Source of the DNA: Gammaproteobacteria bacterium
GTDB lineage: Bacteria; Pseudomonadota; Gammaproteobacteria; Methylohalomonadales; Methylohalomonadaceae
Direction of reading: 5' to 3'
Assembly (NCBI GenBank): GCA_040905025.1
Contig: JBBDSJ010000126.1
Location: 5,833-69,832 of the forward strand
DNA: 64,000 nt
The notes beneath the pieces are model-generated. The model had not been told where the DNA came from, made no database searches, and was given only the letters and a program-made list of their open reading frames with translations. The position numbers and the translations under genes are program-made. This document shows, one piece after another, positions 1-53,647 of this stretch (positions are counted from its first letter, which is position 1; each line of letters starts with the position of its first letter).

Positions 1-444
1 ACACAGGCCGTTATCCGCTGACAGGTTTAGCGTGTGCGTCAATTGCCGGGCAATAACACGGCCACCCAGCCGCGAGCCTTCAAGAACGTACAGGCAGCCC
101 GCTTCGGCCACCGGGGAGGCCGTCAGGGACGCTGGAACAGATACTGCAGCAGCGCTGGAGATGCCCCCCAGCATTTGCAGATCGGTTTCCAGATCACCGC
201 TACGGCAATAATAGCCGAGCAGCGCCAGCGTATTATTGCCCGAACTATGCAGGGCATTTTACAGGGGCCGGAAAACGGACAAAAACGCCTGCAGCAGGTT
301 CTTGTATTCGGGAATTGTGTAATCCGCAGCGAACAGCCGCTGCAATGCCGGCACGGATTCCAGTCTGGTGTGCTGCGCCCGGGTGCCGGAGCGCAGTTGT
401 ATAAGTGCCGCGTTACCAGCCGTGTGTGGTCCGGGCGCTTTCAT
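1..444 (-). pseudogene. heme oxygenase-like protein (HemO/BphO type), 3' end beyond window edge, interrupted by in-frame TAA at 259-261
   Basis: The minus-strand frame is open from ATG at 444 to the window edge except for one TAA (259-261). The N-terminal segment LRSGTRAQHTRLES...YKNLLQAFLSVFRPL and the downstream GCLYVLEGSRLGG resemble heme-oxygenase helices (YVLEGSxLGG motif). Recognition is by eye only. Confidence 0.4.
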
Positions 445-799
445 TGCCGTGTTGGGTCGCTATCCGGTTGGTCGATAAAATTCATGGCAGGCGCCTGCTG
501 GTTATGCATTTAGCCCAAGTATAGAGCAACAGGCCGTTTAATGAACCAGTGTCAAATGACATGAACAAAGCTCGTTAAACGACCGTTTCAAATAACAATT
601 ATTTGCATTTACATGCTGCTTTAGCAACAAATCTGTACTATAGTCTTTATATAGATACTGATAGCAAAATTAATTGCCTATGTGATTAATTGTGTTGGGA
701 ACTTTCTTGGCTTTGCACCGCCGGTGCCTTAATGCTCTGATTAAGGAAACGCTACAGTAGAGCAGCGGAAGCGTAAAATATCGTCAGAGGAGTTGCTGC

Positions 800-1837
800 A
801 TGCGCTGGCCGATTAAGGCAACTGTTTTAAAACTAGTCAAGATTGCCCTGCTCGCGATTATCACGTTGCCGTGGCCGCTATACGCTGAGACCTTAGCCGA
901 GATCCGCATTGGCGGCGTTGACTCTCTCGGCGACCTGCCGACGCTGGTGGCCGATCAGCACGCTTTGTTCAGCGCTGAGAATCTCAGTGCCAGCGTCGAC
1001 TACAGCCTGTCCGGCGAACAGAATCTCGACTTGTTGCGCAATCGGCAAACCGATTTTGCCTTGATGTCGTTGACCCCTGTGGTGCTGGATATGCTCACAG
1101 ATACCACGCCCGGCGGGGCCGATGACCCGGTCATACTGGCCAGCCTGGTCCATTCCACCCGCTTTAACCAGGTCGTCGCTCTGGCCGATCGGCGACTGCG
1201 CGAGCCGCACCATCTGGCCGGCAAGCGGGTCGGGTTGATGCGGGGCACCAATGCCGAATTCACCTGGTGGCTGTTTGCCGCCTACCACAAGCTGGACACG
1301 GCCAGCATAGCGATCATTGATTACCGTATTGACGCCATCACTGATGCCTTAATCAATGGCGACATTGATGCCGCCGTTATCTGGGAACCCTGGTCCGCTT
1401 ATATCGAACAGCAAGCCGGACAGGATATACATCGCTTCCCCGGCAGTAATATTTATGCAGCGAAATGGATACTGGTCACACGCCGCGAAATGATCGAGCA
1501 GAATCCTGCGGTCATTACGGCCGTCTTGCGTGCCTACCAGAATGCTATCAACATTATTGATGCCGAACCGGCCCAGGCACTCAGGCTGTATTTCGATCAC
1601 TCACAGTTAGCCGGTGCCAGCTTGCCGGTCAGTGCAGAAACACTGGCCTATGATCTCAGTCTGGACTGGTCACTGATTGCAACGTTTCGGCAACAACTTG
1701 ACTGGGCGAAACGGGCAGGCTACGTGCAGGTAGCAGAAGCGCCGCCGATCCTGTCAATGATTGCGCCGCAATTCCTGCGTGCCTTGTCACCTTCCGCTAT
1801 AGGTCTGCCGCATATAAATGAATCAGCGTTACCATGA
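800..1837 (+). CDS. periplasmic substrate-binding protein, NMT1/SsuA (NitT/TauT)-like
   Basis: 345 aa ORF with a signal-like N-terminus (LLAIITLPWPLYA). Segments GKRVGLMRGTNAEF and DAAVIWEPW are typical of SsuA/TauA-type binding proteins. The stop overlaps the next start (ATGA at 1834-1837). Confidence 0.7.
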   Translation: MRWPIKATVLKLVKIALLAIITLPWPLYAETLAEIRIGGVDSLGDLPTLVADQHALFSAENLSASVDYSLSGEQNLDLLRNRQTDFALMSLTPVVLDMLTDTTPGGADDPVILASLVHSTRFNQVVALADRRLREPHHLAGKRVGLMRGTNAEFTWWLFAAYHKLDTASIAIIDYRIDAITDALINGDIDAAVIWEPWSAYIEQQAGQDIHRFPGSNIYAAKWILVTRREMIEQNPAVITAVLRAYQNAINIIDAEPAQALRLYFDHSQLAGASLPVSAETLAYDLSLDWSLIATFRQQLDWAKRAGYVQVAEAPPILSMIAPQFLRALSPSAIGLPHINESALP

Positions 1838-4794
1838 AGCTGACGCAGCTCACCGCCGTCTGCATGGTCGCCTGTATTGTCGGCTTGCTGGTATTGCTGA
1901 CGATCAGCCTGTTGAGTCTGGCCAGTATCCGTGCCAATCAGCAGTCGGTCTCCGAGCTGGTAGAGTTAAAGCGCCGCGCCGATAATTTTTCGGTGGCCAG
2001 TGACAGCCTGCTGTTGTTTGGTGCTGATACGTCACTCTGGCAACACTATGAACATGAAGGCCGCTCGCTGCAATCAACTTTACAGGCATTGGCAGAAACC
2101 GTTCCCGGGACAGGCAAGGCAGCGCATCATGTAAAAATCATACTGGCTGAACTGGATAAAATCATTGCGGCAGATGCTGCCGGAATTAACACTGCTGACA
2201 CCGCCAAAATACAGAATCATTCACACGGGCTATTGAATCTGGATCACCGTAGTCAAATTATACTGAACAATATTGCCAATCATGGCATTGCAATGGATAC
2301 GGCGCTGTCGCAGGCGATCACGCAGCAACAAACACTGCACACCCGGGATGTGTATCGCACATCCCTGTTGTTCGCCGGTTCGGCAGTGCTGTTTGCAATA
2401 ATTTCCATGATCGCGTTTGTCTGGATTTATCGGCGCGTCAATCAACCGACCCGGGCACTGCTGCAAACAATCAAACGTGCTGGTGCCGGTGATGCAAGCG
2501 CGCGCGTTGATGTTTCAGGCAGGGATGAACTGGCAGCGATCGGCCAGGCTTTTAATGGCCTGCTGGACTACCAGCAAAATGCACACCAGCATCTTCAGGA
2601 ACAACAGGCGCAGCTGGAACATCAGCGCAAAATGCTGGAGGAATCGCAACGCATCGCCAGGCTCGGCAGCTGGCGCCGGGATCTGCAAACCAATATAACC
2701 GAGTGGTCGGCTGAATGTTACCGGATTGTCGGTCGATCGCCGGACAGCTTCACGCCATCGGCACAGACCTTATTTGATCTGGTGCATCCGGATGATGTCG
2801 AATCATTTACGGTCTTGCGTGACATCGCATTAACCGGCAAGCAACCACTGGACACGCAAATCCGGATCATTCTTCCCGATGGAACCACACGGTATGTGCA
2901 TTTGTGGGCCGAGCTGAAATACGATAACAACGGCAAGCCGCGTTATTTCAGTGGCAGCCTGCAGGATGTCACTGAGTTTCATGCCCTGATCGCGAAGCTT
3001 GAGCAAAACGAGCAGGCCCTGCGGGCCTCGCGTGATGAACTGGGTGATGCACTGGCCATGCGCCAGACACTCATCAATTCACTGCCGGCGCATATTGCCT
3101 TGCTCGACGCTGATGGCCGCATTATTGATGTCAATGATCAGTGGCGTCACTATGGCGAGGAGAATGCCTTCACGGATCCACACTCCGGCATCGGGCAGAG
3201 TTATATCGAGATATGTAAAGCCGCCAGCGGTGATTGCCGCGAAGATGCCCTCGCTGTCGCGCAGGGACTGAAGGATACTCTTGCCCATAAACTGACCACC
3301 TTTACACTGGAATACCCGTGCCATTCGCCGGATACAAAGCGCTGGTTCCGGGTCATGGTCAATCAGCTGACTTCGAGCCAGGCTGGTGAGGAAAATTATG
3401 GCGCCGTCGTCATGCATATCGACATCACCGAGCGCAAACTGGCGGAACTGGAACTGAGTCAACTGGCTTTCGAGGATCAGCTGACCGGCCTGTGGTCGCG
3501 CAATGGCTTCGTCGCCCAACTCTTTAAAAGCATCAAGCGAAATGGCTGGCCAGCTCATGGCATAGTTGTATTACTGGATATAGAGCAATTGCATGATGTC
3601 AATGACGCCCATGGCTATGCGGTCGGTGACCAACTATTAATATATGTGGCTGAACTTCTCCGCACCAGCACCGGCGACAACGGGCTGGTCGGCCGTACCA
3701 GCGGCGATCAGTTCATGCTGTACATACAGACGGAGTCTGAACCTGAACTGGAACAACAGCGCGTGGCACTGGAGTCGGTATTTGCCGAGCCGCTCAGACT
3801 TGAGGACCAACTCATTTATACCAATGCCCATTTTGGCTATACCCTGCTGGCGACAGATATCCGTGATGTCGAGGCATTGATACATGAGGCCGAACTTGCC
3901 CTGTTCGAGACCCGGCGGGCAAAGTCCGGCAGATGGAGAATATATAAAACTGAATTCGATACCGCATCACGTGATCGTGTCCGCCTGAGCAAGGAACTGC
4001 GCCAGGCACTTGTCAATCAGAATCAGGAGTTTGAGCTGCATTTTCAACCCAAGGTGAATCTCATAAATGGCGAGTTGATAGCCTGCGAGGCATTATTGCG
4101 CTGGCATCATCCCGAGCGTGGGCTACAACCACCGGCCAGCTTTATTCCGGTCGCCGAACAAAGCCAGCTCATACGCCCGATCGGGCGCTGGGTTATCAAT
4201 GAAGCCTGCCGTTACCTGCGCCGCTGGCGTGATGAAGGCCTGCCGATTGTGTGTGTCTCGGTCAATGTCTCGCTGGTGCAGTTTATCGATGAAAGTTTCA
4301 CAGAGATCGTCGCCGCTGCATTGGCTGATCATCAGGTCGAGCCCGGCAGCCTGATACTGGAAATCACCGAAAGCGTTCTTGATGAAGCATCCGGCATTAT
4401 CAAGGCAGAAATACTGAAACTGCATGAAACAGGCGTGCGTCTGTCACTTGACGATTTCGGCACCGGCTACTCATCCCTGCGCTACCTGCAGCAGTATCCG
4501 TTTGATGAAATCAAGATCGATCAGAGTTTCGTCAAAAACCTTGTTGGTAATAACTATAACCGCAGTATTGTCAGTGCGATCCTGGATATTGCCGAAGCCA
4601 TTGGCGCCGAGACCGTAGCAGAAGGCATTGAAGACCTTGCAGTGCGGAACGCGTTGCTTGATCTCGGCTGCAAGGCCGGACAGGGCTATTATTTCAGCAT
4701 GCCGCTGGAGGCCGAGGACTTTCGCTGGCTGCTGGACAAGAGATGTCCGCTGCCACTGACAGCCAGTTACAACAGCAGTATGACAAGCGCCTGA
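1834..4794 (+). CDS. membrane sensor HAMP-PAS-PAS-GGDEF(degenerate)-EAL protein, probable c-di-GMP phosphodiesterase
   Basis: 986 aa with two TM segments flanking a periplasmic region and a HAMP domain (RALLQTIKRAGAGD...ELAAIGQAFNGL). It has two PAS-like blocks. The GGDEF site reads SGDQF. The EAL domain carries EALLRW, LEITES, DDFGTGYSSL, KIDQSF, EGIE and GQGYYF. Confidence 0.9.
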   Translation: MKLTQLTAVCMVACIVGLLVLLTISLLSLASIRANQQSVSELVELKRRADNFSVASDSLLLFGADTSLWQHYEHEGRSLQSTLQALAETVPGTGKAAHHVKIILAELDKIIAADAAGINTADTAKIQNHSHGLLNLDHRSQIILNNIANHGIAMDTALSQAITQQQTLHTRDVYRTSLLFAGSAVLFAIISMIAFVWIYRRVNQPTRALLQTIKRAGAGDASARVDVSGRDELAAIGQAFNGLLDYQQNAHQHLQEQQAQLEHQRKMLEESQRIARLGSWRRDLQTNITEWSAECYRIVGRSPDSFTPSAQTLFDLVHPDDVESFTVLRDIALTGKQPLDTQIRIILPDGTTRYVHLWAELKYDNNGKPRYFSGSLQDVTEFHALIAKLEQNEQALRASRDELGDALAMRQTLINSLPAHIALLDADGRIIDVNDQWRHYGEENAFTDPHSGIGQSYIEICKAASGDCREDALAVAQGLKDTLAHKLTTFTLEYPCHSPDTKRWFRVMVNQLTSSQAGEENYGAVVMHIDITERKLAELELSQLAFEDQLTGLWSRNGFVAQLFKSIKRNGWPAHGIVVLLDIEQLHDVNDAHGYAVGDQLLIYVAELLRTSTGDNGLVGRTSGDQFMLYIQTESEPELEQQRVALESVFAEPLRLEDQLIYTNAHFGYTLLATDIRDVEALIHEAELALFETRRAKSGRWRIYKTEFDTASRDRVRLSKELRQALVNQNQEFELHFQPKVNLINGELIACEALLRWHHPERGLQPPASFIPVAEQSQLIRPIGRWVINEACRYLRRWRDEGLPIVCVSVNVSLVQFIDESFTEIVAAALADHQVEPGSLILEITESVLDEASGIIKAEILKLHETGVRLSLDDFGTGYSSLRYLQQYPFDEIKIDQSFVKNLVGNNYNRSIVSAILDIAEAIGAETVAEGIEDLAVRNALLDLGCKAGQGYYFSMPLEAEDFRWLLDKRCPLPLTASYNSSMTSA

Positions 4795-4835
4795 TATGCG
4801 ATTGCAAATACACGTAATACTTATGGAGCTACAGC

Positions 4836-6577
4836 ATGAATTCGCCGGAACCTGCGCTAATCAAACGTAAAACCGGCCTGCCGGGCCTGGATGAAATTAC
4901 CGGCGGCGGCCTGCCGGCAGCAGGCGCCACACTGATAATCGGTCAGGCCGGCGCCGGCAAATCTGTTTTCTGTCTGCAGATACTCGCCAAAACGATCACG
5001 ACCGGCACGGGCGCCATCTATGTGTCGTTCGAAGAATCCAGGGCGCAGATTCATCGCGATGCGGCATCATTCAGCTGGGGTAAAACACTGATTGCTGCCG
5101 ATAACTGGGATGTCATCGATGCCCCCGGCCGGCACACGATGCAACGACGTCAGGTGGCTTTGATCTGGACGGGTTGCTGGCTGTCATCAGCAGCCGGGCA
5201 AGTAAAACCGGCGCCGGCTGGATTGTACTCGATGGTATTGATCGTCTGTTGCGAATGCAACCTGACACCAACTCCGCCGTTGCCCAGATTGTGGCCATCA
5301 ACAACTGGTGTGAACAGCAGCAATTGTCACTGCTGTTGACGGCCAAGCAGTTTGCCGCCGATACCACGCTTGTGGCTTATCTCGAAGATGTTGAATACAT
5401 GCTTGATACCGTACTGAATTTATCGCAGGGCCTGGTTGAACGCAGGCTCAACCGGCGCTTCCGTATCGTCAAGTATCGTGGCTCGGCACACGTAACGGAT
5501 GAACTGCCCATGGTCATTGATAATGACGGTCTGCATATCCCATTCGCTGACCGGGTGACACAAGCGGCCGTACCGGTGAGCCATGAACGCCTGCAAACCG
5601 GCATTCCGCGGCTTGATGCCGTCCTTGACGGTGGTTTGTATCGCGGCTCCACCACACTCGTTTCCGGGCGACCGGGCACAGCCAAAACCACACTACTCGG
5701 GGCCAGTTTTGCGCTTGCTGCCGCCGGTCGCAAGGAGCGTACGCTTTACATCAGTTTTGATGAACTGGCTGACCGCATCGTGCGTAACGTCGCCTCGGTC
5801 GGTATTGATCTTGCGCCGGCTATAGATGCCGGGCTTGTCAAAATCGATTCACGGAAAGCCTGGCGCTCACTGGTCGAAGATCACTACGTTGAAATACTGC
5901 GCATGCTTGATGAGTTCAAACCCGATTGTCTGGTCATTGATCCGGTCTCGGCCTTGTTAAAAGCGGCCAGCACCGCAGCCACATATATTGCCATCGAGCG
6001 GATATTGGGTGTTGCCCGGGCCAGTGGTATTACCACGATACTTACTTCATTAACTGGGAATGAACCTGGAGGCGAATCCACTTTGAGCCACACCTCGACG
6101 CTGGTAGACACCTGGATTGCGCTTGGCTATGCCGTCAGAGGTGGTGAGCGGAACCGGACACTGTCTGTCGTAAAATCGCGCGGCACCGGCCATTCCAACC
6201 AGGTTCGCGAGCTGGTGCTCGCAACCAGCGGTCTCGACCTGGCGGATGTCTATCAGTTTGGCTCGGAAGTGCTGATGGGCACCGCCAGACTGCAGAAGGA
6301 ACAGGAACTGGCGAGCCTTGAAAAAAAGCGTTCAGTCGATCGCAGCAAACAACAGCAAAAACTGAAACGTGAAATTGAACTCGCCAAAGGCCGGGAGAAA
6401 AAAGCCGCCAGCGAGACGCGAAGTCTTGAGGAAGAACTACGACTTGAAATGCAGGAATTTGCGGATACCGACAGCGAAGAATCGAAGCGGGAAAGCGACA
6501 TTATGCAAAAGCGTGACAAAGGCAGCACCAAAGCCATAAATGCTCCTGAACCGAAACATACCGGAGGGGAAAAATGA
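4836..6577 (+). pseudogene. kaiC: KaiC-like double RecA-domain ATPase, reading frame broken near 5122-5126
   Basis: Two overlapping ORFs (4836-5339 and 5174-6577) each encode one KaiC domain, with Walker A GQAGAGKS (CI) and GRPGTAKT (CII). SHTSTLVDTWI aligns with the KaiC S/T phosphosite segment. The frames join at a C5 run, giving IDAP|RPAHDATTSGGFDLDGLL. Confidence 0.8.
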
Positions 6578-6894
6578 ACGCGGAGTCGCAACCTGAGGCC
6601 AGGTCAGGGGCGCATCTGGTTCTGTTTATCACCGGTGATTCACCGCGTTCACAACGGGCACGCGGCAACCTCGAGCAGGCCCTGAATCAACTCGCGATTG
6701 ATGGCGTGCTGGCTGAAGTAGTTGATTTATTAAGTCAGCCGGAACAGGTAATAAAATATGGCGTATTTGCAACGCCGGCATTGATGAATGCCAGTCAATC
6801 CGGAAACCCGCAAATACTCTATGGTGATTTATCCAACACGGACAGACTGCTAAAGTTTCTGGCGACTGGTTTGCCCGGCAAAAAGATTGGCTAG
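6574..6894 (+). CDS. kaiB: KaiB-like thioredoxin-fold clock protein
   Basis: 106 aa. LVLFITGDSPRSQRARGNL, FATPAL and GDLS match the KaiB pattern (LYVAGNTPNS..., ATPTL, GDLS). The start overlaps the kaiC stop (ATGA at 6574). Confidence 0.85.
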   Translation: MNAESQPEARSGAHLVLFITGDSPRSQRARGNLEQALNQLAIDGVLAEVVDLLSQPEQVIKYGVFATPALMNASQSGNPQILYGDLSNTDRLLKFLATGLPGKKIG

Positions 6895-7242
6895 AAGTGG
6901 TCGCAAAATTCATTACCCGTGACAGGAGCAGGGCAACGCCCGCCTGGCCGAACGCGACAGCCGCCTGCACGGTGCCAGTTGGAACAGCAATGTTGCGCAA
7001 ACAGGTCAGAACGGTGTCGAGGCCAATACCGAAGCCGGTATTGATCTGAACGAGAATGTCTCGGTCAATGTGCGTTATACGGCGACGAAATTCAGCAACC
7101 TGCTGTCGCATCAGGCGATGAGAACAACACGGGTCAGCTGGCAAATGCAAACCCTGACTCCGGTTTGTGGCTGGTGGTAAAACAATAACCATGCCCGACG
7201 ACACCCATATCGGGTGTCCTTACCCAGGGGCTTCCGGCTTTT

Positions 7243-9030
7243 TTATTTCGGCTTGGCTGCGTACATGGCATCATCAGCATGGCGCAAAAGCTGCTGATCA
7301 TCATCACCATCCTGCGGATAAACTGCAATTCCGATACTGGGTGCGATTTTCAGCACACGATTTTCGACGGCAAACTCCAGCATGAAAGCTGCCTGAATTT
7401 TACTTACAACCCTTTCAATGTCTTCATGCCGATTAATATTCTCCAGCAGGATCACAAATTCATCGCCACCAATCCGTGCCACCGTATCCACTTCACGCAG
7501 ACAGTCCCTGAGTCGCTGTGCCGACTCTTGCAGCAGCGCGTCACCCACCGCATGCCCAAAGTCATCGTTCACCTGCTTGAATTTATCCAGATCCAGATAC
7601 AACACGGCCAGCAAAGCTGTTTCGCGCCGGGCCCGGGCCAATGCCAGCCGCAAACGATCCTGAAACAGCACCCGATTGGGCAAGCCGGTCAGCACATCAT
7701 GCAACGCCATATAACGCATTTGTGTCTGCAATTTTTTGCGCTCAACGGCGGTGGCTATCTGCGTCGAAACAAACTGCAGGAACTCCTTGTCCTTGTCACT
7801 ATAAGACATTGCCTGTGAACTGTGCTGCATTATCAACGCGCCCAGCGTTGTATTGTTCATGCTCAACGGTACACCCAGTCGACTTGTCATAAGCTGGCTG
7901 TTGTTTGTGCCTGCTGCAATTGCAGCAGATATCTGTAACAACGGCGCATCGGTTCGCATCACCTCAACGCAAAACGTGTCGGCGGCGGGGGTTTGTTCGG
8001 GAACCTGTTCGGTTACGTCGTAATAATAGGCATATTCCAGTGCTTCGTCTGTGCCGCCGCGCAGCGCAATATAAAACCGGTCTGCTGTTAGAAATTCGGT
8101 AATCGTTGCATGAATGCTTTTAAACAAAGCCTGTAAATCATCTTCGCTATGCGCCGCTTCGGATATTTCATACTGCGCCTTGTGTATGAACTCCGCATAT
8201 TTGCGCTCAGAAATATCGTGCGCCACGGCGACCCGATACTGGTCTTCCGGTGCAAAGCGTGCCGACCACATGATATGTGCAATCTGGCCATCCTTGCGGA
8301 TATAACGGTTTTCAAAATACGGCTTGGCATTGCCGGCGCTGATTTCACTGATCGCGGCCGCAGTGTGGGCGCGGTCATCCGGATGCACCAGATCGAGCGG
8401 ATTCCTGCCATGCATTTCTTCGGGCGTGTAACCGAATATACGTTCAGAGGCAGCACTGACATACACAAACCGGCCTTGCTGATCGACAACGCAGACGGCG
8501 TCGAGCAGCAGGTCCATGATGTTGACCAACGGGACATCGGGTTTCATTGAATCTTCAGGCTCATCGGTTAACGGGTCTGTTTGATAAACATCCAGCAGCG
8601 GCTGTTGTGAAGCATCCACAGCGATCAGCTTTGTACGGCCAGCTTCGCCATACAGGAATGCATTCTGCCGGTACACCCGGGACAGCTCGCGTGCCTGTTC
8701 AAGCTTTATGTCCAGTATCAGCAGACTCGGCTCCGCTGGCCAGTGTCCTGCCGGGTCACTGCCGGTGGCGGAATAATAGCGCCAGCGGTTGGCCACCGCC
8801 TGGATAAACTGTTGCTGCAGATGCTGGTTTTCGGCGGCATCAGTTTTACGCCCATGCGGATTGAAAGCCGTAATCAACGCACAACTGGCGATGTCTTCGG
8901 CACGCAGCAGCTGCAGCAGCTGCAGCAGTTCAGTGGATTCGCCACAAGCAGGCAGGCGGATTTCGCTTCCATTGACCCGCACTGTATAGACTGCATGGGT
9001 GTAGGATCGCGCCAGTTCTGCTGTCAGCAC
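7243..9030 (-). CDS. DUF3293-like N-terminal domain fused to PAS-GAF-GGDEF diguanylate cyclase
   Basis: 595 aa. The N-terminal ~140 aa (ITAFNPHGRK..AENQ...WPAEPSLLIL) look like DUF3293. A PAS block follows (VCVVDQQGRFVYVSAASERIFGY), then a GAF-like region, then an intact GGDEF domain (RIGGDEFVILL). Confidence 0.85.
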   Translation of the reverse strand: MLTAELARSYTHAVYTVRVNGSEIRLPACGESTELLQLLQLLRAEDIASCALITAFNPHGRKTDAAENQHLQQQFIQAVANRWRYYSATGSDPAGHWPAEPSLLILDIKLEQARELSRVYRQNAFLYGEAGRTKLIAVDASQQPLLDVYQTDPLTDEPEDSMKPDVPLVNIMDLLLDAVCVVDQQGRFVYVSAASERIFGYTPEEMHGRNPLDLVHPDDRAHTAAAISEISAGNAKPYFENRYIRKDGQIAHIMWSARFAPEDQYRVAVAHDISERKYAEFIHKAQYEISEAAHSEDDLQALFKSIHATITEFLTADRFYIALRGGTDEALEYAYYYDVTEQVPEQTPAADTFCVEVMRTDAPLLQISAAIAAGTNNSQLMTSRLGVPLSMNNTTLGALIMQHSSQAMSYSDKDKEFLQFVSTQIATAVERKKLQTQMRYMALHDVLTGLPNRVLFQDRLRLALARARRETALLAVLYLDLDKFKQVNDDFGHAVGDALLQESAQRLRDCLREVDTVARIGGDEFVILLENINRHEDIERVVSKIQAAFMLEFAVENRVLKIAPSIGIAVYPQDGDDDQQLLRHADDAMYAAKPK

Positions 9031-9107
9031 GACCGGCTACCGTGCACAAGCTCATACCTGTAAACCATTTGGGGCAACAAAGCCATGCGGCGTACAATCA
9101 TCGTGTC

Positions 9108-9428
9108 ATGAGAAATCATCATCACAATCGGCCTGGTCGCAATCGGCCCGGCAGCGTATTGCTACTGGTCATGTTGATCGCCAGCACGGGCGGCTGCGGC
9201 GGCAATGTGAATGTGCAGGCCAGTGGCGGTGGCGCCGGCGGATTTGCATCACTGGGCGCGATCATACTCGGTACCAGTGCGTTGCGGTATCTGCGCGGCA
9301 ATCACGATCCGGTTCGCAAGACACCGGAAGAACAAGACGATCCGGCGCTGGTGACACCCCCGGAAATATCAGCGGAGCCAACAACAGACGACACGCCGCA
9401 GTTACAGCCCATCAAGCGGCCAGACTGA
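9108..9428 (+). CDS. small hypothetical lipoprotein-like protein
   Basis: ATG at 9108 gives a basic N-terminus plus a hydrophobic segment ending ...IASTGGC, then a Gly-rich and acidic/Pro-rich tail. A strong terminator follows directly. No family recognised. Confidence 0.4.
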   Translation: MRNHHHNRPGRNRPGSVLLLVMLIASTGGCGGNVNVQASGGGAGGFASLGAIILGTSALRYLRGNHDPVRKTPEEQDDPALVTPPEISAEPTTDDTPQLQPIKRPD

Positions 9429-9452
9429 TGCTTTCCGGCCGCCGCAAACAAC

Positions 9453-9481
9453 AAACGCAGGCACTGGCCTGCGTTTGTTTT
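9453..9481 (+). terminator. rho-independent terminator
   Basis: Perfect 10-bp stem aaacgcaggc / gcctgcgttt with loop actg, followed by gtttt. Confidence 0.75.
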
Positions 9482-9541
9482 CACTCACCTTAAGTATTGC
9501 CCGTAAGTATTGCCCGTGCTTTTAAAAAGTCCCTCGGGGTT

Positions 9542-9678
9542 GTTTCACTGGGCCCCGGCTTTCGCCGGGGCGACGAAACAGGTTTATCATACCGGTGAAG
9601 ACGGTAGCCAATATAAATAAAGCACGCTTTCAGCGCTCATGTTCGACTGGCCTGCGGCCTTCGCCGCAATGACGGCAG
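9542..9678. repeat. two REP-like palindromic units (9542-9579 and 9641-9678)
   Basis: gtttcactgggccccggctttcgccggggcgacgaaac and gttcgactggcctgcggccttcgccgcaatgacggcag share the same layout and a GC hairpin around TTCGCC. They lie between convergent gene ends. Confidence 0.5.
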
Positions 9679-12907: not shown

Positions 12908-15900
12908 CTAGACACTTTGCAGATTCGCGTACGCCGCCACCAGCCATTTGCTGCCGGCATTTTCGAAATTCACCTGCAGACGCGTTTGTGCGCCGTGGCC
13001 TTCCAGATTCAACACCACGCCTTCACCAAATTTCGCATGACTCACACGCTGACCCAGACGGAACCCCGTTTCTTCTCTTATTGCGGCAGTACTGCGATTG
13101 CTTGCCTGACCACTACTGACATTCGCCCGGCCGGCATGGGGCAACTGACCGCCGAGGCGCACTGCTTCAATGAGTTCTTCCGGAATCTCGCGCAAAAAGC
13201 GTGACGCCGGCGAATAAAAATCCGAGCCATGCATGCGCCGGTGTTCGGCATGCGCCAGTGTCAGACGTTCCTGTGCCCGGGTGATGCCGACATAACACAG
13301 CCGTCGTTCTTCCTCGAGCTGCACCGAATCGGCCAGTGATCGTTGATGCGGGAACAGCCCTTCTTCCATGCCGATCATGAATACAATCGGAAACTCCAGC
13401 CCTTTCGCCGCATGCAACGTCATCAGTTGCACATAATCGCTGCCGGTCGCAGCCTGTTCTTCACCGGACTCAAGTGATGCGTTGGCAAGGAACTGTTGTA
13501 ACGGTGTCATTTCTTCAGCCATGTCGTCCGGCTGCTTGTATTCGCGCATGGCGCGTACCAGCTCTTCCAGGTTTTCGATCCGGTCCTGACCGCGATCGCC
13601 TTTTTCCTTTTTGAAATGCGCAATCAAACCACTGCGGTTGATCGCCGCTTCCATAATCTCGCCGAGCGCGTCATGCTGATTCAGGTTTTTTATATCTTCG
13701 CTTAAATCATAAATAAGTTGCAGAAAACCATGCAGTGCCGACAATGCCCGTGCCGCCAGCATTTTTTCACGCAGTACCTGTTCGGCCGCCTGCCATAAAC
13801 TTAATGATTCCTTGCGTGCCAGATCCCGCAACTCCTGCAGGGTGCGCTGACCGATCCCGCGCGTCGGTATATTTACAATCCGTTCAAATGACGCATCATC
13901 ATTGAAGTTACCGGCCAGCCGTAAATAGGCGAGCGCATCCTTGACTTCGGCACGTTCATAAAAACGCATGCCGCCAAAAATGCGATACGGGATCGCCTGC
14001 CGCACCAGCATTTCCTCGAGCATGCGCGACTGCGCGCTGACGCGATATAAAATGGCCAAGTCACGATACGGCCGGCCACGCGCATGCCAGACTTCAATCT
14101 CGTCAACCACATGCCGGGCTTCGTCCTGCTCGTTATATGCAGTATAGATTTTGATCTTTTCGCCGGTCTCACCTTCCGTCCACAGTTGCTTGCCCAGCCG
14201 GCCACTGTTATTGGCGATCAACGCATTCGCGGCCTTGAGAATTGTGCTGGTAGAACGATAGTTCTGTTCCAGCCGCAGTAACTGTGTATCGGTAAAGTCG
14301 CGTTCAAAACGCTGCATGTTTTCGACTAAAGCTCCTCTCCAACTGTAGATCGAATTATGTGTAACCACACCGTTGGCAATGAAATTATGTGTATTCTGAA
14401 CATTCAAATCATAGACATCTGCTTCCGTGTCCTGATTCTGAACATGCTCAACAACATCGAAATTACCATCAGCAGTGGCCATTACCATGCCCGGGCGGAT
14501 TGCGGCAGCAGTGATAAATGGCAATGATCGGTTCAGGATATGGCCTTGCATGATATAGCGCGAATCATCAAGGCGTTCGCGAATCCGCCGCGCAATTTGC
14601 ATCAGCTCGCCAAAATCACGGCGCACTGTTTCAAAGCGCCAACTATTACTGCCAGTTTTCACTTTACGCACACTTAGCCCCAATGCTTCAAGTTCTGATC
14701 GATCCCTGGCATTAATGCCCGCGACGGAAATTCTATGCATTGGATTCAGACCACGCCGATCACCACACAGGGTAATGACAATATTCCGGCGGTTTGAATT
14801 TCTGGATTGTGGCAGATGGTGCGGGCGTTCCGGGTCGAGACCCACGGATTCCAGCAAGCGCATGGCCGCTTCTGTAGTATCCAACGATGCATATACACGC
14901 TTTATATAAGCGCCATCATGTACCAGACCATTCACGGCCTTGCCCTTGCGCGGCACAAATGGCAGCATCGGCAATCCATAACGCAATGATGTCAGTGTCT
15001 CATCCAGTCTGGCTTCATTTTCAGTTGAGTGTGTACGAATAATCCACAATGCATCGGCGCTTTCCTGTAACGCCCGCTGCTTGAAACCGACTACTGCCTT
15101 TGCCTGACCACGGGTATAGACTTGTGAAGTTCCCAGGCGATAGCCCATACCTTCCTTGTGCATCAAATACAGAAAATAGGTTTGCGGCGCTTCACCCAGT
15201 ACGTAACCGGCAAAATGCGTATGTTCTGGCGTACTTTTCAGCACGGCACCAGAACGTAAATGCAGATGAACCATGCGTCCCTTGCGACGACGTTTGAATG
15301 TTTCCATTACCCGGGCAGATCGGAAATCGCCACTGCCGTAACTGGAGAAAATCTGCTCATCCGTCTGAATCATCTCAATCGGCTTGCTGGAACCATTGGC
15401 CATTTGAATCTGTGTGCCTGCCGCCAGACATTGATCATCATCGCCGACAGCAAACAACGAGCCGGTATTACCGACCAGCAAACGCAGCCAGGCGTATTGC
15501 AATGCATTGGTATCCTGGAATTCATCAACGAGCACATGCCGGAAACGCTGGCGGTAGTGATTCAGGATCGAATCGTTATCACGCAGCAGTTCATGTGCGC
15601 GCAACAACAGTTCGGCAAAGTCCACCAACCCGCCACGATTGCAGGTTTCCTGATAAGCCTGGTAGATACGCACCATTTGCGTAATGGTTGGATCGGCATG
15701 AGCATCAATATGCTGTGGCCTTACACCTTCTTCCTTGCGGGCATTGATATACCACTGGGACTCGCGTGACGGCCATTGCGCCTCATCCAGATTCAAGCCG
15801 CGTAATGTTCTTTTAATCACGCGCAGCTGATCATCGCTGTCAATTATCTGAAAATCCTGCGGCAGACCGGCTTCCTGCCAGTGCGCGCGCAGCAGCCGGT

Positions 15901-16183
15901 GCGCGGTGCCATGAAACGTACCGACCCACATGCCACTAGCTGGCATGCCCAGCAGTTGTTCAGTACGGGCACGCATTTGCGCGGCGGCCTTGTTGGTAAA
16001 TGTGACGGCGAGAATGCCATGCGGACTGGTTTCACCGGTGCGAACATACCAGGCGATGCGATGTACCAGCACCCGGGTTTTGCCACTGCCGGCACCGGCC
16101 AGTACCAGCAGATTGCCGGTCGGCGCGGCTACAGCTTCGCGCTGGGCAGTATTGAGGGGATCAAGTAAATCGGAAACATCCAT
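12908..16183 (-). CDS. uvrD: DNA helicase II UvrD, containing an intein
   Basis: The start MDVSDLLDPLNTAQREAVAAP..LLVLAGAGSGKTRVLVHRIAW closely matches the E. coli UvrD N-terminus as I recall it. VDEFQDTN is present. Motif III VGDDDQ|...|SIYSWRGA is split by 359 codons. Confidence 0.95.
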   Translation of the reverse strand: MDVSDLLDPLNTAQREAVAAPTGNLLVLAGAGSGKTRVLVHRIAWYVRTGETSPHGILAVTFTNKAAAQMRARTEQLLGMPASGMWVGTFHGTAHRLLRAHWQEAGLPQDFQIIDSDDQLRVIKRTLRGLNLDEAQWPSRESQWYINARKEEGVRPQHIDAHADPTITQMVRIYQAYQETCNRGGLVDFAELLLRAHELLRDNDSILNHYRQRFRHVLVDEFQDTNALQYAWLRLLVGNTGSLFAVGDDDQCLAAGTQIQMANGSSKPIEMIQTDEQIFSSYGSGDFRSARVMETFKRRRKGRMVHLHLRSGAVLKSTPEHTHFAGYVLGEAPQTYFLYLMHKEGMGYRLGTSQVYTRGQAKAVVGFKQRALQESADALWIIRTHSTENEARLDETLTSLRYGLPMLPFVPRKGKAVNGLVHDGAYIKRVYASLDTTEAAMRLLESVGLDPERPHHLPQSRNSNRRNIVITLCGDRRGLNPMHRISVAGINARDRSELEALGLSVRKVKTGSNSWRFETVRRDFGELMQIARRIRERLDDSRYIMQGHILNRSLPFITAAAIRPGMVMATADGNFDVVEHVQNQDTEADVYDLNVQNTHNFIANGVVTHNSIYSWRGALVENMQRFERDFTDTQLLRLEQNYRSTSTILKAANALIANNSGRLGKQLWTEGETGEKIKIYTAYNEQDEARHVVDEIEVWHARGRPYRDLAILYRVSAQSRMLEEMLVRQAIPYRIFGGMRFYERAEVKDALAYLRLAGNFNDDASFERIVNIPTRGIGQRTLQELRDLARKESLSLWQAAEQVLREKMLAARALSALHGFLQLIYDLSEDIKNLNQHDALGEIMEAAINRSGLIAHFKKEKGDRGQDRIENLEELVRAMREYKQPDDMAEEMTPLQQFLANASLESGEEQAATGSDYVQLMTLHAAKGLEFPIVFMIGMEEGLFPHQRSLADSVQLEEERRLCYVGITRAQERLTLAHAEHRRMHGSDFYSPASRFLREIPEELIEAVRLGGQLPHAGRANVSSGQASNRSTAAIREETGFRLGQRVSHAKFGEGVVLNLEGHGAQTRLQVNFENAGSKWLVAAYANLQSV
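14354..15430 (-). other. intein (359 codons) inside uvrD
   Basis: Begins CLAAGTQI right after VGDDDQ. It contains TPEHTHF (block B TxxH) and ends VYDLNVQNTHNFIANGVVTHN, followed by +1 Ser (SIYSWRGA). Confidence 0.85.
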
Positions 16184-16321
16184 GGGCGTGGATTGTAACA
16201 AAAGCAAACAGACAATAGATGGTGGATAATGGCAGGCTGTACTTCGCTGTGTTCAGCACGAACTGTTATGCTCGTGCCGCATCGCTCGACAATCTTTTCG
16301 CCATTAACTTGTCTACCAAAC

Positions 16322-51815: not shown

Positions 51816-52165
51816 GGCGCTACCTCTTAAACTCGGAACTTGATTGACCTTACCCTAGCAGACTATGACGCGCCTGTCCGCCAACCGGCATGATCCCGGG
51901 CTCGTCATAAGCCACTATTGGCTGGATTTGTCAGTCCCTGAACCGTGCTGTATGAAACCAGCGCCTGTGGATCAGGGGCCATGGCAGCGAAGCGCTGCTG
52001 TCCGTTTTATTCTGAATTTTCAATTAGATAAAAGCGCAAACACGGCACTGGCAATGTGCCTGAAGGAACTTTGAACCAACCGGAAAACTCCCATGTGTGT
52101 TAAACTGACACATGTAGCCTTTTTTCAATAATTCATTTTTGGCTACCTGCCTTGCTTACTTGCGT

Positions 52166-53647
52166 ATGTCCACCACTGCAACATTGAACGATCGCCCGAC
52201 ACTGCGAGACGCCCTGCTTCTGTTTGTGCTCGTACCGTTTATGCTGGTCATGGGGCTGGGCGGCTGGTACAGCCTGCATGCATTGTCATTCGAAGTTGAA
52301 TCACGCATGCAGGAAGATATTGAGCTGATTGCCCGCAGTATCCGTTTGCCACTGAGTAATGCACTGGATCGCGGCAATATCCATGAAATTGAGCAGGCAC
52401 TGGATTCGGCATTCAGTATTGACCGTGTTTACGGTGTTTATGTCTATGATGAAACAGGCCAGCGAATAGCAGGCAGCGGCACCCAGCGGGCACAGGTGTC
52501 AAGCGATCGCGCAGCTGAACTGGCACTGGAACGTAACCGCCAGAGTGAGTTTGAAGAGACCGGTCGTGAAGATATTTTTTCATTTTTTCTGCCACTGACC
52601 GATATCGGCGGCCGCATCATCGGTTTATTGCAGGTTACCCGCCGTGGCAGTGATTTTCACCAGAATATCGGCCAGGTACGCCAGCATGCCCTCGTTGCCT
52701 TACTAATCACCGGTATTTTACTGACACTGATTATCTTTATCGGTCATTACCGTGCTATCGGCCGGCATCTGAGTGCCGTCGAAAACGGTCTGCGCCGGAT
52801 TGGTACGGATCAGCCAGATGCCCGGGTACCGGAACACGGGCCCAGCGAGATTCATGCGCTAAGCCAAAATATCAACAGCATGCTGGATCGTCTCGCGCAC
52901 TCACAAGACGAGATCGAACAACGTCAACAACGCGAACTGTCATTGCAATTGCGCTTGCAGGAATCGGAAAAGCTTGCTGTTATTGGCCAACTTGCCGCCG
53001 GCGTTGCGCACGAACTCGGCACACCATTAAGTACCATTGATGGTAAGGCCCAACGCGCATTGCGGAAAGACGATCTGGCGACCTCGTTAAGATCAGACCT
53101 TGAACAAATGCGCGCCGAAGTCAGGCGCATGGAATATATCATCCATCAATTGCTGGATTTCGGCCGGCACAATCCATTGCAATGCCGGCCAGTAAAATGT
53201 GTTGATCTTGTCCACACAGTAATTGATCAATGCACGTCTGAAGCAAAACAGCGCAAAATAGCTATCAACATTACCAACAGTAATAACGATCTTGAAGTTG
53301 AAGTTGATAGTGTGCGTATTGAACAGGCACTTACCAACCTCCTGCGCAATGCAATTCAGGCTGCCAGAAAGCAAGTATCGATAAACTGGCATGCAGCAGA
53401 TTCCGGAATAGTATTTTCTATTGAAGATGACGGTGCGGGTATTACTACTGAATCCTGTTCGCGATTATTTGATCCTTTTTTCACAACCAAACCGGTCGGC
53501 TCCGGTACTGGTATGGGGCTGGCTGTCGCGAAAGCCGCTATTAGCGATCATCATGGCGAGATCGATGTGGATACAAGCCCGCATCTCAGCGGCGCCCGGT
53601 TTCTGGTTCACTTACCCACACAACAACAGGCTGATGCTCATGAGTGA
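52166..53647 (+). CDS. sensor histidine kinase (NtrB-class partner of the next gene)
   Basis: There are two TM segments and a HAMP-like linker. The H-box is LAAGVAHELGTPL, the N box is LTNLLRNAIQA and the G boxes are DDGAGI and GSGTGMGLAV. Confidence 0.9.
   Translation: MSTTATLNDRPTLRDALLLFVLVPFMLVMGLGGWYSLHALSFEVESRMQEDIELIARSIRLPLSNALDRGNIHEIEQALDSAFSIDRVYGVYVYDETGQRIAGSGTQRAQVSSDRAAELALERNRQSEFEETGREDIFSFFLPLTDIGGRIIGLLQVTRRGSDFHQNIGQVRQHALVALLITGILLTLIIFIGHYRAIGRHLSAVENGLRRIGTDQPDARVPEHGPSEIHALSQNINSMLDRLAHSQDEIEQRQQRELSLQLRLQESEKLAVIGQLAAGVAHELGTPLSTIDGKAQRALRKDDLATSLRSDLEQMRAEVRRMEYIIHQLLDFGRHNPLQCRPVKCVDLVHTVIDQCTSEAKQRKIAINITNSNNDLEVEVDSVRIEQALTNLLRNAIQAARKQVSINWHAADSGIVFSIEDDGAGITTESCSRLFDPFFTTKPVGSGTGMGLAVAKAAISDHHGEIDVDTSPHLSGARFLVHLPTQQQADAHE

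Follow-up and report, generated by a model that had tools for sequence, protein, structure and literature searches.

Conserved coupling of kaiC and kaiB to a c-di-GMP phosphodiesterase gene, and a frameshifted kaiC copy, in a gammaproteobacterial metagenome-assembled genome

What does a KaiC-KaiB pair act upon when it is surrounded by genes for cyclic di-GMP (c-di-GMP) turnover and no histidine kinase stands beside it? The question is raised by a 64,000-nucleotide stretch of a Gammaproteobacteria bacterium of the family Methylohalomonadaceae (contig JBBDSJ010000126.1 of assembly GCA_040905025.1, positions 5,833 to 69,832), hereafter called the window, in which genes for a substrate-binding protein, a membrane-bound c-di-GMP phosphodiesterase (PDE) with GGDEF and EAL domains, KaiC and KaiB follow each other on the forward strand. 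A preliminary description of this DNA had proposed that the Kai timer may be entrained by, or read out through, c-di-GMP turnover and a periplasmic ligand. The gene order it gave, the ATGA overlaps between the binding-protein stop and the PDE start (at 1834) and between the kaiC stop and the kaiB start (at 6574), and the 41-nucleotide spacer with GGAG ahead of kaiC were all recovered in the open reading frame (ORF) listing and the junction sequences, as was a diguanylate cyclase gene with DUF3293-PAS-GAF-GGDEF architecture converging on the cluster. We read the window as holding one copy of a conserved operon in which a KaiA-independent KaiBC switch would gate c-di-GMP hydrolysis by the PDE, and we place the probability of this reading at roughly 0.55.

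The cluster lacks kaiA and a histidine kinase, as had been described. Every gene in it falls into another Pfam family than KaiA, and the sole kinase-like ORF of the window (52118-53644, forward strand; 130 bits with a HisKA-HATPase_c hidden Markov model, HMM) is located about 43 kb from the kai genes, no such ORF being found in the window within 40 kb of them.

The evidence that carries the reading is the conservation of the gene linkage. A KaiC profile scan of a species-representative genome set, with one genome per species and without the window's own genome, resulted in 379 relatives, and the best 80 loci were analysed by probing them with the window's domains. In the 67 loci with a KaiC at least about 45% identical to that of the window (the clade in the following), a PAS-GGDEF-EAL gene was present directly upstream of kaiC on the same strand, without exception, and kaiB was located downstream. 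Of 69 loci scored for the gap from the PDE stop to the kaiC start, nearly all fell between -37 and about +100 nucleotides, L050 and the truncated L055 being the exceptions, and a 4-nucleotide overlap of kaiC and kaiB occurred in 54 of 66 loci. A survey of this kind, for GGDEF and EAL genes next to KaiC, had been suggested in the preliminary description, and its outcome, a complete linkage with operon-like spacing, is decidedly the opposite of a pairing that lapses in related genomes. Chance adjacency of kaiBC and an EAL gene is ruled out by the 67/67 conservation.

In a neighbour-joining tree, the EAL-linked KaiC proteins formed a single clade, with the window protein as sister to that of Methylohalomonas lacus. 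The gene for the closest intact KaiC (M. lacus HMT 1, 63% identity) stands in a cluster of the same four genes, arranged identically and with junctions that overlap. Hosts of the clade, by record title, were Halomonas, Marinobacter, Wenzhouxiangella, Halochromatium, Thioalkalivibrio, Aquisalimonas, Halofilum, Guyparkeria, Spiribacter, Arhodomonas, Nitrincola, Kineobactrum and Haliea; further hosts were the alphaproteobacterial Roseovarius tibetensis, Rhodovibrio sodomensis and Limimonas, as well as two metagenome-assembled genomes (MAGs) of Trueperaceae. The clade (L004-L070) was thus found across classes and phyla, and almost only in halophile or haloalkaliphile lineages, with many soda-lake and salt-lake MAGs among them. 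Such a halophile-biased and phylum-crossing distribution suggests that the PDE-KaiC-KaiB arrangement was moved by habitat-linked horizontal transfer. In Aquisalimonas lutea CECT 8326, two paralogous arrangements of binding-protein, PDE, KaiC, KaiB and GGDEF genes were present in one genome, on two contigs (L006, L007).

Nine KaiC loci without an EAL gene were found outside the clade. In the outgroup loci examined, kaiB was directly followed by a PAS-HisKA-HATPase_c kinase gene, or response-regulator or Crp-type regulators were present, whereas a kinase-like ORF occurred within 9 kb in only four of the 67 clade loci. The preliminary description was right to set the cluster against kinase-linked kaiBC loci: both the outgroup loci and the Rhodobacter sphaeroides locus carry kinases. 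A GGDEF-EAL gene upstream of kaiC was also seen in two small separate groups, L077/78 and L081/82, with Mesorhizobium among their members. In the clade, the PDE holds the effector role that is taken by PAS-histidine kinases at other proteobacterial kaiBC pairs.

The c-di-GMP neighbours of the preliminary description are not equally constant. The EAL gene is conserved, whereas only about 20 of the 67 loci (about 30%) had a binding-protein homolog upstream of the PDE gene (with a -4 overlap in 15 loci, the window counted), and the convergent cyclase was absent at the matching position in M. lacus, the closest relative. For this reason the conserved core is, on the basis of gene order and sequence, a predicted three-gene signalling operon PDE-KaiC-KaiB. 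The binding protein, with a hydrophobic segment at residues 3-27 in a signal-peptide-like N-terminus, is a putative accessory sensor partner; among solved structures, its nearest though weak match was the taurine-binding TauA (6SSY). The convergent cyclase, with an intact GGDEF motif and the RxxD I-site REVD, is a recurrent, non-obligatory neighbour: GGDEF was the commonest family of the first gene after kaiB (11/61), an extra GGDEF gene was present within 3 kb in 21 of 68 loci (about 30%), and the flanks held 42 extra GGDEF genes in 764 kb. The share of GGDEF genes in such genomes is typically about 1%, and the density in the flanks is several-fold above it.

The second line of evidence is the catalytic site of the PDE. 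Motif inspection recovered the EAL signature segments noted earlier, and likewise the reading SGDQF at the GGDEF site. The motifs EALxR, N, ExxE, DDFGTGYSS, KxD, EGxE and QG are all found in the window protein and were nearly invariant in the 69 upstream proteins. The GGDEF motif was intact in about half of these 69 relatives and degenerate in the rest (SGDQF, AGDEF, TGDQF and others), and the degenerate site, although present in the window, is consequently not a defining feature of the family. With the EAL motifs near-invariant and the GGDEF motif variable, the conserved activity is predicted to be c-di-GMP hydrolysis.

The N-terminal regions of the PDE proteins varied: HAMP was present in 41 of 68, together with several PAS types, some GAF and CBS domains, and from 0 to 5 transmembrane-like (TM-like) segments. 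Variability of this degree is typical of input modules, and it favours a reversed direction of signalling, in which the PDE would be the input arm, its sensors entraining or resetting KaiC via c-di-GMP, pGpG, GTP or direct contact, and the output would be elsewhere. Such an effect has a parallel in the cyanobacterium Synechococcus elongatus, where KidA, a protein with four PAS domains, GGDEF and EAL, binds fold-switched KaiB through its PAS domains and alters the clock period (PMC9478674), and where phase and period both shift when a PDE is expressed (PMC13001216). Even so, we consider the input-arm reading improbable. No other conserved effector, such as a kinase or a DNA-binding protein, is linked to the module, which would leave it without an output, and it is the EAL catalytic site, not a mere scaffold, that is the most conserved feature. 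Moreover, the GGDEF and EAL domains of KidA are dispensable for its clock phenotype (PMC9478674), and c-di-GMP had no direct in vitro effect on the Synechococcus Kai proteins (PMC13001216).

The likeness of the window PDE to KidA, a multi-PAS GGDEF-EAL protein tied to a Kai system, is one of domain architecture only. KidA was found by pull-down and not through adjacency of its gene to the kai genes, belongs to a KaiABC oscillator and has both catalytic motifs intact (PMC9478674), whereas the window PDE gene shares a predicted operon with kaiC-kaiB, in a system without KaiA, and has the EAL site as the conserved element.

The Kai proteins themselves were examined after repair of a frameshift that splits kaiC in this genome and is treated below. 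Repaired KaiC contained two Pfam KaiC (PF06745) stretches (1.3e-69) and scored 398.8 bits over residues 7-510 against NCBIfam PRK09302, just under the cut-off of 408. Invariant columns of the KaiC alignment included GQAGAGKS and FEES in the CI domain, and GRPGTAKT and FDE in CII. A putative phosphosite pair, S421-T422 within HTSTLVDTW, was invariant in 15 homologs and aligned to S413/S414 of KaiC-RS, the KaiC of R. sphaeroides. The dodecamer of KaiC-RS (8DBA) was also the closest solved structure (3.7e-79), the alignment extending into its coiled-coil tail up to its residue 529; the C-terminal tail of the window protein is 48% charged. By these features, KaiC is predicted to be of the double-domain, long-tailed, KaiA-independent type.

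KaiBC-RS works as an hourglass driven by ATP/ADP, in which KaiC autophosphorylates without KaiA and has a coiled-coil tail (PMC10076222). The window resembles this system (Rhodobacter/Cereibacter sphaeroides KD131; PDB 8DBA, 8FWJ) in the lack of KaiA, in having kaiB directly after kaiC, and in the long KaiC tail aligning with the KaiC-RS coiled coil. It differs in that the KaiC proteins are only about 34% identical, the phosphosites are S-T instead of S-S, and the effector of R. sphaeroides is an HWE kinase encoded downstream of kaiB (kaiC-kaiB-kinase), when in the window it is a PAS-GGDEF-EAL protein encoded upstream of kaiC. A further difference is in the CII motif, which is FDE throughout the clade and FEE in KaiC-RS: in F308-D309-E310 of the repaired protein (window positions about 5756-5764), the first acidic residue is Asp in all 15 aligned clade members and aligns to the first Glu of the KaiC-RS SFEE motif. 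This change could alter kinase or ATPase kinetics.

KaiB was identified by Pfam PF07689 (42.4 bits versus a cut-off of 27), and as it scored far under the cut-offs of the NCBIfam KaiB equivalogs, it represents a divergent KaiB. The AlphaFold2 (AF2) model built from the family alignment (mean predicted local distance difference test, pLDDT, 79.6) had a thioredoxin-like order of beta-alpha-beta-alpha-beta-beta-alpha, and its best superpositions were with fold-switched KaiB on KaiC-CI (5JWO_B, TM-score 0.89), with KaiB-RS bound to KaiC-RS (8FWJ_M, TM-score 0.89), a further likeness to the R. sphaeroides system, and with Legionella KaiB (4KUN). No ground-state KaiB was among the top 50 structural matches of the model. 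AF2 tends toward the thioredoxin-like KaiB fold, so the fold call is weak evidence. Clade KaiB proteins have F or Y at the position of the cyanobacterial fold-switch glycine. As modelled, KaiB may be binding-competent and in the KaiC-binding fold.

The candidate for the contact between the two halves of the operon is a PAS domain of the PDE. In the family, a PAS_4-type domain abuts GGDEF, with the signature LPAHIALLD...EYPCHSP...RWF...VVMH[IV]DITERK. With a family HMM of this subtype, 58 of 66 family proteins reached 100 bits or more, in each case in the position abutting GGDEF, these within-family scores being partly circular as training sequences were among those scored; the other PAS domains of the same loci obtained 10-68 bits, and the PAS domains of outgroup Kai-linked kinases 20-25 bits. 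Two out-of-sample relatives among the best database matches of the window PAS domain, P0122 and P0127 (47% and 43% identity), were encoded directly after kaiC-kaiB pairs of unrelated KaiC lineages, in which KaiC is only about 38% identical to that of the window, and in one of the two the PAS subtype is fused to a HisKA-HATPase_c kinase. On a noisy long-read metagenome contig (L084), kaiC-kaiB was followed by a PAS-HisKA-HATPase_c kinase with the subtype (6001-7260), and a second copy adjoining a GAF domain was found just downstream (7352-7819). The window PAS domain gave nothing significant against solved structures, and a large-database search with a word prefilter matched short proteins only, which does not amount to a census of output domains. 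The PAS subtype as a universal Kai-docking domain is ruled out by its lack in the outgroup and R. sphaeroides kinases. From the sequences at hand, the subtype appears enriched beside kaiBC, on kinase and PDE outputs alike, while not being universal, and its presence on both kinds of partner suggests a modular Kai-docking domain. A PAS-HisKA ORF with the subtype (125 bits) was also observed in a Halobacteria archaeon MAG (L087, 2502-3152), on a 3.3-kb contig with no kai gene.

The shared PAS subtype bears on another explanation, by which the operon would be shared merely for one physiological programme, such as stress or energy adaptation, and the Kai proteins would not be physically coupled to the PDE. 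The link between them is drawn here from gene context, c-di-GMP genes abound in these neighbourhoods in general, as the count of extra GGDEF genes illustrates, and work cited in PMC5520375 has linked KaiC homologs of Legionella with responses to stress rather than with timing. We hold co-regulation of this kind to be unlikely. A fixed order with tight spacing, maintained down to about 45% KaiC identity and across phyla, exceeds usual co-regulation, the PDE replaces a kinase at kaiBC loci, and its PAS subtype is common to a Kai-adjacent kinase.

In the gating reading, which we prefer, the nucleotide or phosphorylation state of KaiC (at the putative S-T pair) and the binding of KaiB would be read by the PDE, probably via the GGDEF-proximal PAS domain, and would gate the EAL activity. 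C-di-GMP hydrolysis, and hence biofilm formation or motility, would then follow day and night or the energy state of the cell. By analogy with KaiBC of R. sphaeroides, the module may act as an hourglass or switch, and lineage-specific N-terminal sensor heads would add environmental input. The docking step is inferred from the analogies with KaiBC-RS (PMC10076222) and with the binding of KaiB by the PAS domains of KidA (PMC9478674). A more far-reaching version is tentative, the odds being somewhat against it: that the clade exchanged a histidine-kinase output for a PDE and spread horizontally among mostly halophiles of at least two phyla, that the dedicated PAS domain docks KaiB or KaiC, and that a KaiA-less hourglass thereby times a second messenger and the decision between sessile and motile life.

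In this genome, the input may come from a periplasmic binding protein of the NMT1/SsuA type that acts on the TM-HAMP sensor head. The model for such an arrangement is NspS-MbaA of Vibrio cholerae, in which a periplasmic binding protein controls a phosphodiesterase of TM-HAMP-GGDEF*-EAL architecture. As there, the binding-protein gene is located immediately upstream of, and coupled to, a gene for a membrane protein with HAMP, degenerate GGDEF and EAL; the binding protein has a predicted signal peptide, and a putative sensor loop lies between two predicted TM segments. The differences are that the window binding protein is of the NMT1/SsuA/TauA type and not PotD-like, that the sensor contains two inserted PAS domains, and that the pair is joined in an operon with kaiC-kaiB. 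With regard to the proposal that c-di-GMP turnover and a periplasmic ligand are input or output of the timer, the linkage is conserved, and the signal peptide of the binding protein and the TM1-loop-TM2-HAMP arrangement of the PDE make a periplasmic input plausible; the sequence is compatible with either direction of signalling.

Several observations weigh against the gating reading, in addition to the fold preference of AF2 and the partial circularity of the PAS scores. The coupling of PDE and Kai proteins is proposed here from gene order and sequence, as is its direction (output or input), and kaiC of the window itself is frameshifted. In four of six PAS-relative contexts (L085, L087-L089), which are of limited length, no kai gene was visible. 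The PAS subtype had no match in the R. sphaeroides HWE kinase, and the outgroup Kai-linked kinases had none or generic similarity at best. The lack of a direct action of c-di-GMP on Kai proteins in vitro counts here as well, although against the input direction only.

The preliminary description had held that the wiring has not been characterised, which stands for experiments: a full-text literature search returned no work on kaiBC partnered by a phosphodiesterase or cyclase, and no KaiC study in the genera of the clade. The gene context had been noted before. According to the genome paper of Ramlibacter tataouinensis from 2011, non-cyanobacterial kaiC-kaiB in nearly every case have a neighbour that is either a histidine kinase or else some GGDEF/EAL protein (PMC3164672), and the KidA paper, besides demonstrating binding to KaiB, mentions PAS genes adjoining kai homologs (PMC9478674). 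The Ramlibacter statement consists of one descriptive sentence and a figure, places the neighbour "immediately downstream", and comes with no clade, motif analysis or experiment; the clade with the PDE gene upstream is not delineated in it (PMC3164672). The wiring is thus foreshadowed by KidA and the 2011 paper, but was neither delineated nor tested before.

One correction to the preliminary description concerns kaiC, which it had treated as one gene and which is in fact frameshifted at 5122-5126 into two ORFs. In frame 0 from 4836, the KaiC sequence ends at "...NWDVIDAP", and the ORF (4836-5339) encodes 167 amino acids of which the first 97 are KaiC, when the ORF in the -1 frame (5174-6577) encodes 467. 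On the basis of a nucleotide alignment with the M. lacus ortholog, the run of five C (C5) contains two extra bases in the window. Removal of "CC" gives GAT GCC CGG CCG and the peptide IDARPAHDATT..., colinear with all 14 aligned homologs, and re-reading of one base at the C5 run restores a KaiC of 580 amino acids. Both kaiC halves and kaiB are otherwise stop-free and well conserved.

Is the split real? The Logan assembly of run SRR27977661 (contig L001) was 100% identical over 8156 nucleotides with 0 mismatches, the C5 run included, and gene calls on that contig again resulted in kaiC fragments, of 167 and 428 amino acids. A second allele of the C-run region had 0 matches in metagenome contigs, and the split was unique to the window genome (0 of 80 related loci). 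Programmed -1 frameshifting or transcriptional slippage was rejected, as no X XXY YYZ heptamer is present, the C-run is only five long, the downstream RNA fold is weak (z = -1.8) and the shift is absent from all 80 loci; the split is certainly not a conserved recoding signal.

It follows from the frameshift that this KaiC copy may be non-functional. Applied to the window copy only and not to the whole family, this leads to the reading that the module is a relic in this genome, with a real 2-nucleotide insertion, a KaiC pseudogene, and the binding protein and PDE working as an ordinary ligand-controlled c-di-GMP switch without Kai input. For such a relic we see the balance as even. The frameshift in two assemblies, its uniqueness among the 80 fetched loci, the lack of signs of programmed recoding, the mere 97 KaiC residues retained in the 5' ORF, and the size of the change, 2 nucleotides where homopolymer miscalls are typically of 1, all argue for it. 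Against it, the stop-free and conserved kaiC halves and kaiB indicate that inactivation, if any, happened very recently, the genes on either side are intact, and the source is a MAG, in which consensus indels and population variants occur and for which both assemblies may share the same reads. A sequencing or assembly artefact, with an intact and functional module in the window, is favoured by the location of the lesion in a homopolymer amid G+C-rich sequence, by the metagenomic source, and by the intact rest of the operon. We regard an artefact as rather unlikely, given that a second assembler gave the exact C5 run over an 8.1-kb contig with 0 mismatches and that the sequence deviates by 2 nucleotides from expectation. 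A lineage-specific lesion, real rather than artefactual, is the more likely origin of the split. If the insertion is real, the Kai arm would be disabled and only the arm of binding protein and PDE would work; the frameshift thus warns that the window locus is possibly a recently inactivated copy. In an Ectothiorhodospiraceae MAG (L004, 63-4215), the PDE gene was split, with the PAS subtype in ORF 63-3005 and GGDEF-EAL in ORF 3061-4215, which represents either another disrupted copy or an assembly error.

The features of the cluster are collected in Table 1. Sigma-70 promoter and intrinsic terminator scans of 300-9600 resulted in the same counts as shuffled sequences, and an Rfam scan of the window in zero matches. 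Between kaiB and the convergent cyclase there is a non-coding spacer of about 350 nucleotides (6895-7243). Its frame +2 encodes a beta-barrel-like (outer membrane protein-like) peptide, GIDLNENVSVNVRYTATKFSN..., with no Pfam match, possibly a gene remnant, and the ORF 6629-7204 on the reverse strand is probably spurious. Near 7180-7235, an inverted repeat GACACCC-ATATC-GGGTGTC with a T-run shortly after was seen by eye, the repeat having been missed by the terminator scan. Elsewhere in the window, a UvrD/PcrA-type helicase gene (12908-16207, reverse strand; 1099 amino acids) is interrupted by an intein, identified by Pfam Intein_splicing and a weak Hom_end_hint match between the UvrD N- and C-terminal domains, the insert spanning from "CLAAGT..." to "...VVTHNS".

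Table 1. Features of the kai cluster and its flanks, in window positions (aa, amino acids; nt, nucleotides).
Feature	Position	Strand	Basis or remark
Substrate-binding protein, NMT1/SsuA-like, 345 aa	800-1837	+	Pfam NMT1 3.6e-17; NCBIfam SsuA_fam 1.2e-21, below cut-off
Membrane sensor c-di-GMP PDE, 986 aa, HAMP-PAS-PAS-GGDEF-EAL	1834-4794	+	Pfam EAL, GGDEF, HAMP, PAS_3, PAS_4
PDE TM1, outside loop of ~140 aa, TM2	1834-2430	+	
PDE HAMP	2422-2568	+	
PDE first PAS	2665-2970	+	
PDE family-specific PAS, GGDEF-proximal, distinct subtype; candidate Kai-coupling domain	3016-3468	+	Family HMM
PDE degenerate GGDEF (SGDQF)	3469-3927	+	Pfam 1.9e-24
PDE EAL	3991-4704	+	Pfam 1.6e-71
PDE-kaiC spacer, 41 nt	4795-4835	+	GGAG at 4825-4828, 7 nt before kaiC ATG at 4836
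kaiC overall	4836-6577	+	Double KaiC domain (Pfam), frame split
kaiC 5' part, frame 0: start of CI, Walker A GQAGAGKS, FEES catalytic motif	4836-5126	+	Runs on out of frame to stop at 5339
Frameshift site, C5 run, 2 bases above ortholog expectation	5122-5126	+	
kaiC 3' part, -1 frame: remainder of CI, CII (Walker A GRPGTAKT, FDE)	5126-6577	+	
kaiC putative S-T phosphosite pair	~6095-6100	+	
kaiC charged C-terminal tail, 96 aa	~6287-6574	+	
kaiB, 106 aa	6574-6894	+	Pfam KaiB 5.9e-11
Diguanylate cyclase DUF3293-PAS-GAF-GGDEF, 595 aa, convergent	7243-9030	-	Pfam

The targets of non-cyanobacterial KaiBC systems are largely unknown, and R. sphaeroides, the best studied of them, is understood biochemically, not at the level of its output. 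In the clade described here, kaiBC has a single conserved partner, an enzyme whose activity is easy to assay, which offers c-di-GMP hydrolysis as a direct read-out, and the module is carried by cultured, tractable hosts such as Halomonas, Marinobacter and Methylohalomonas lacus. If true, the gating of the PDE would join Kai timing with the control of lifestyle by c-di-GMP, and would extend the observation on KidA from cyanobacteria to a co-operonic and presumably obligate partnership. In the more far-reaching version, a non-cyanobacterial Kai timer would for the first time have a defined output pathway, and the PDE would be the first c-di-GMP enzyme gated by a clock.

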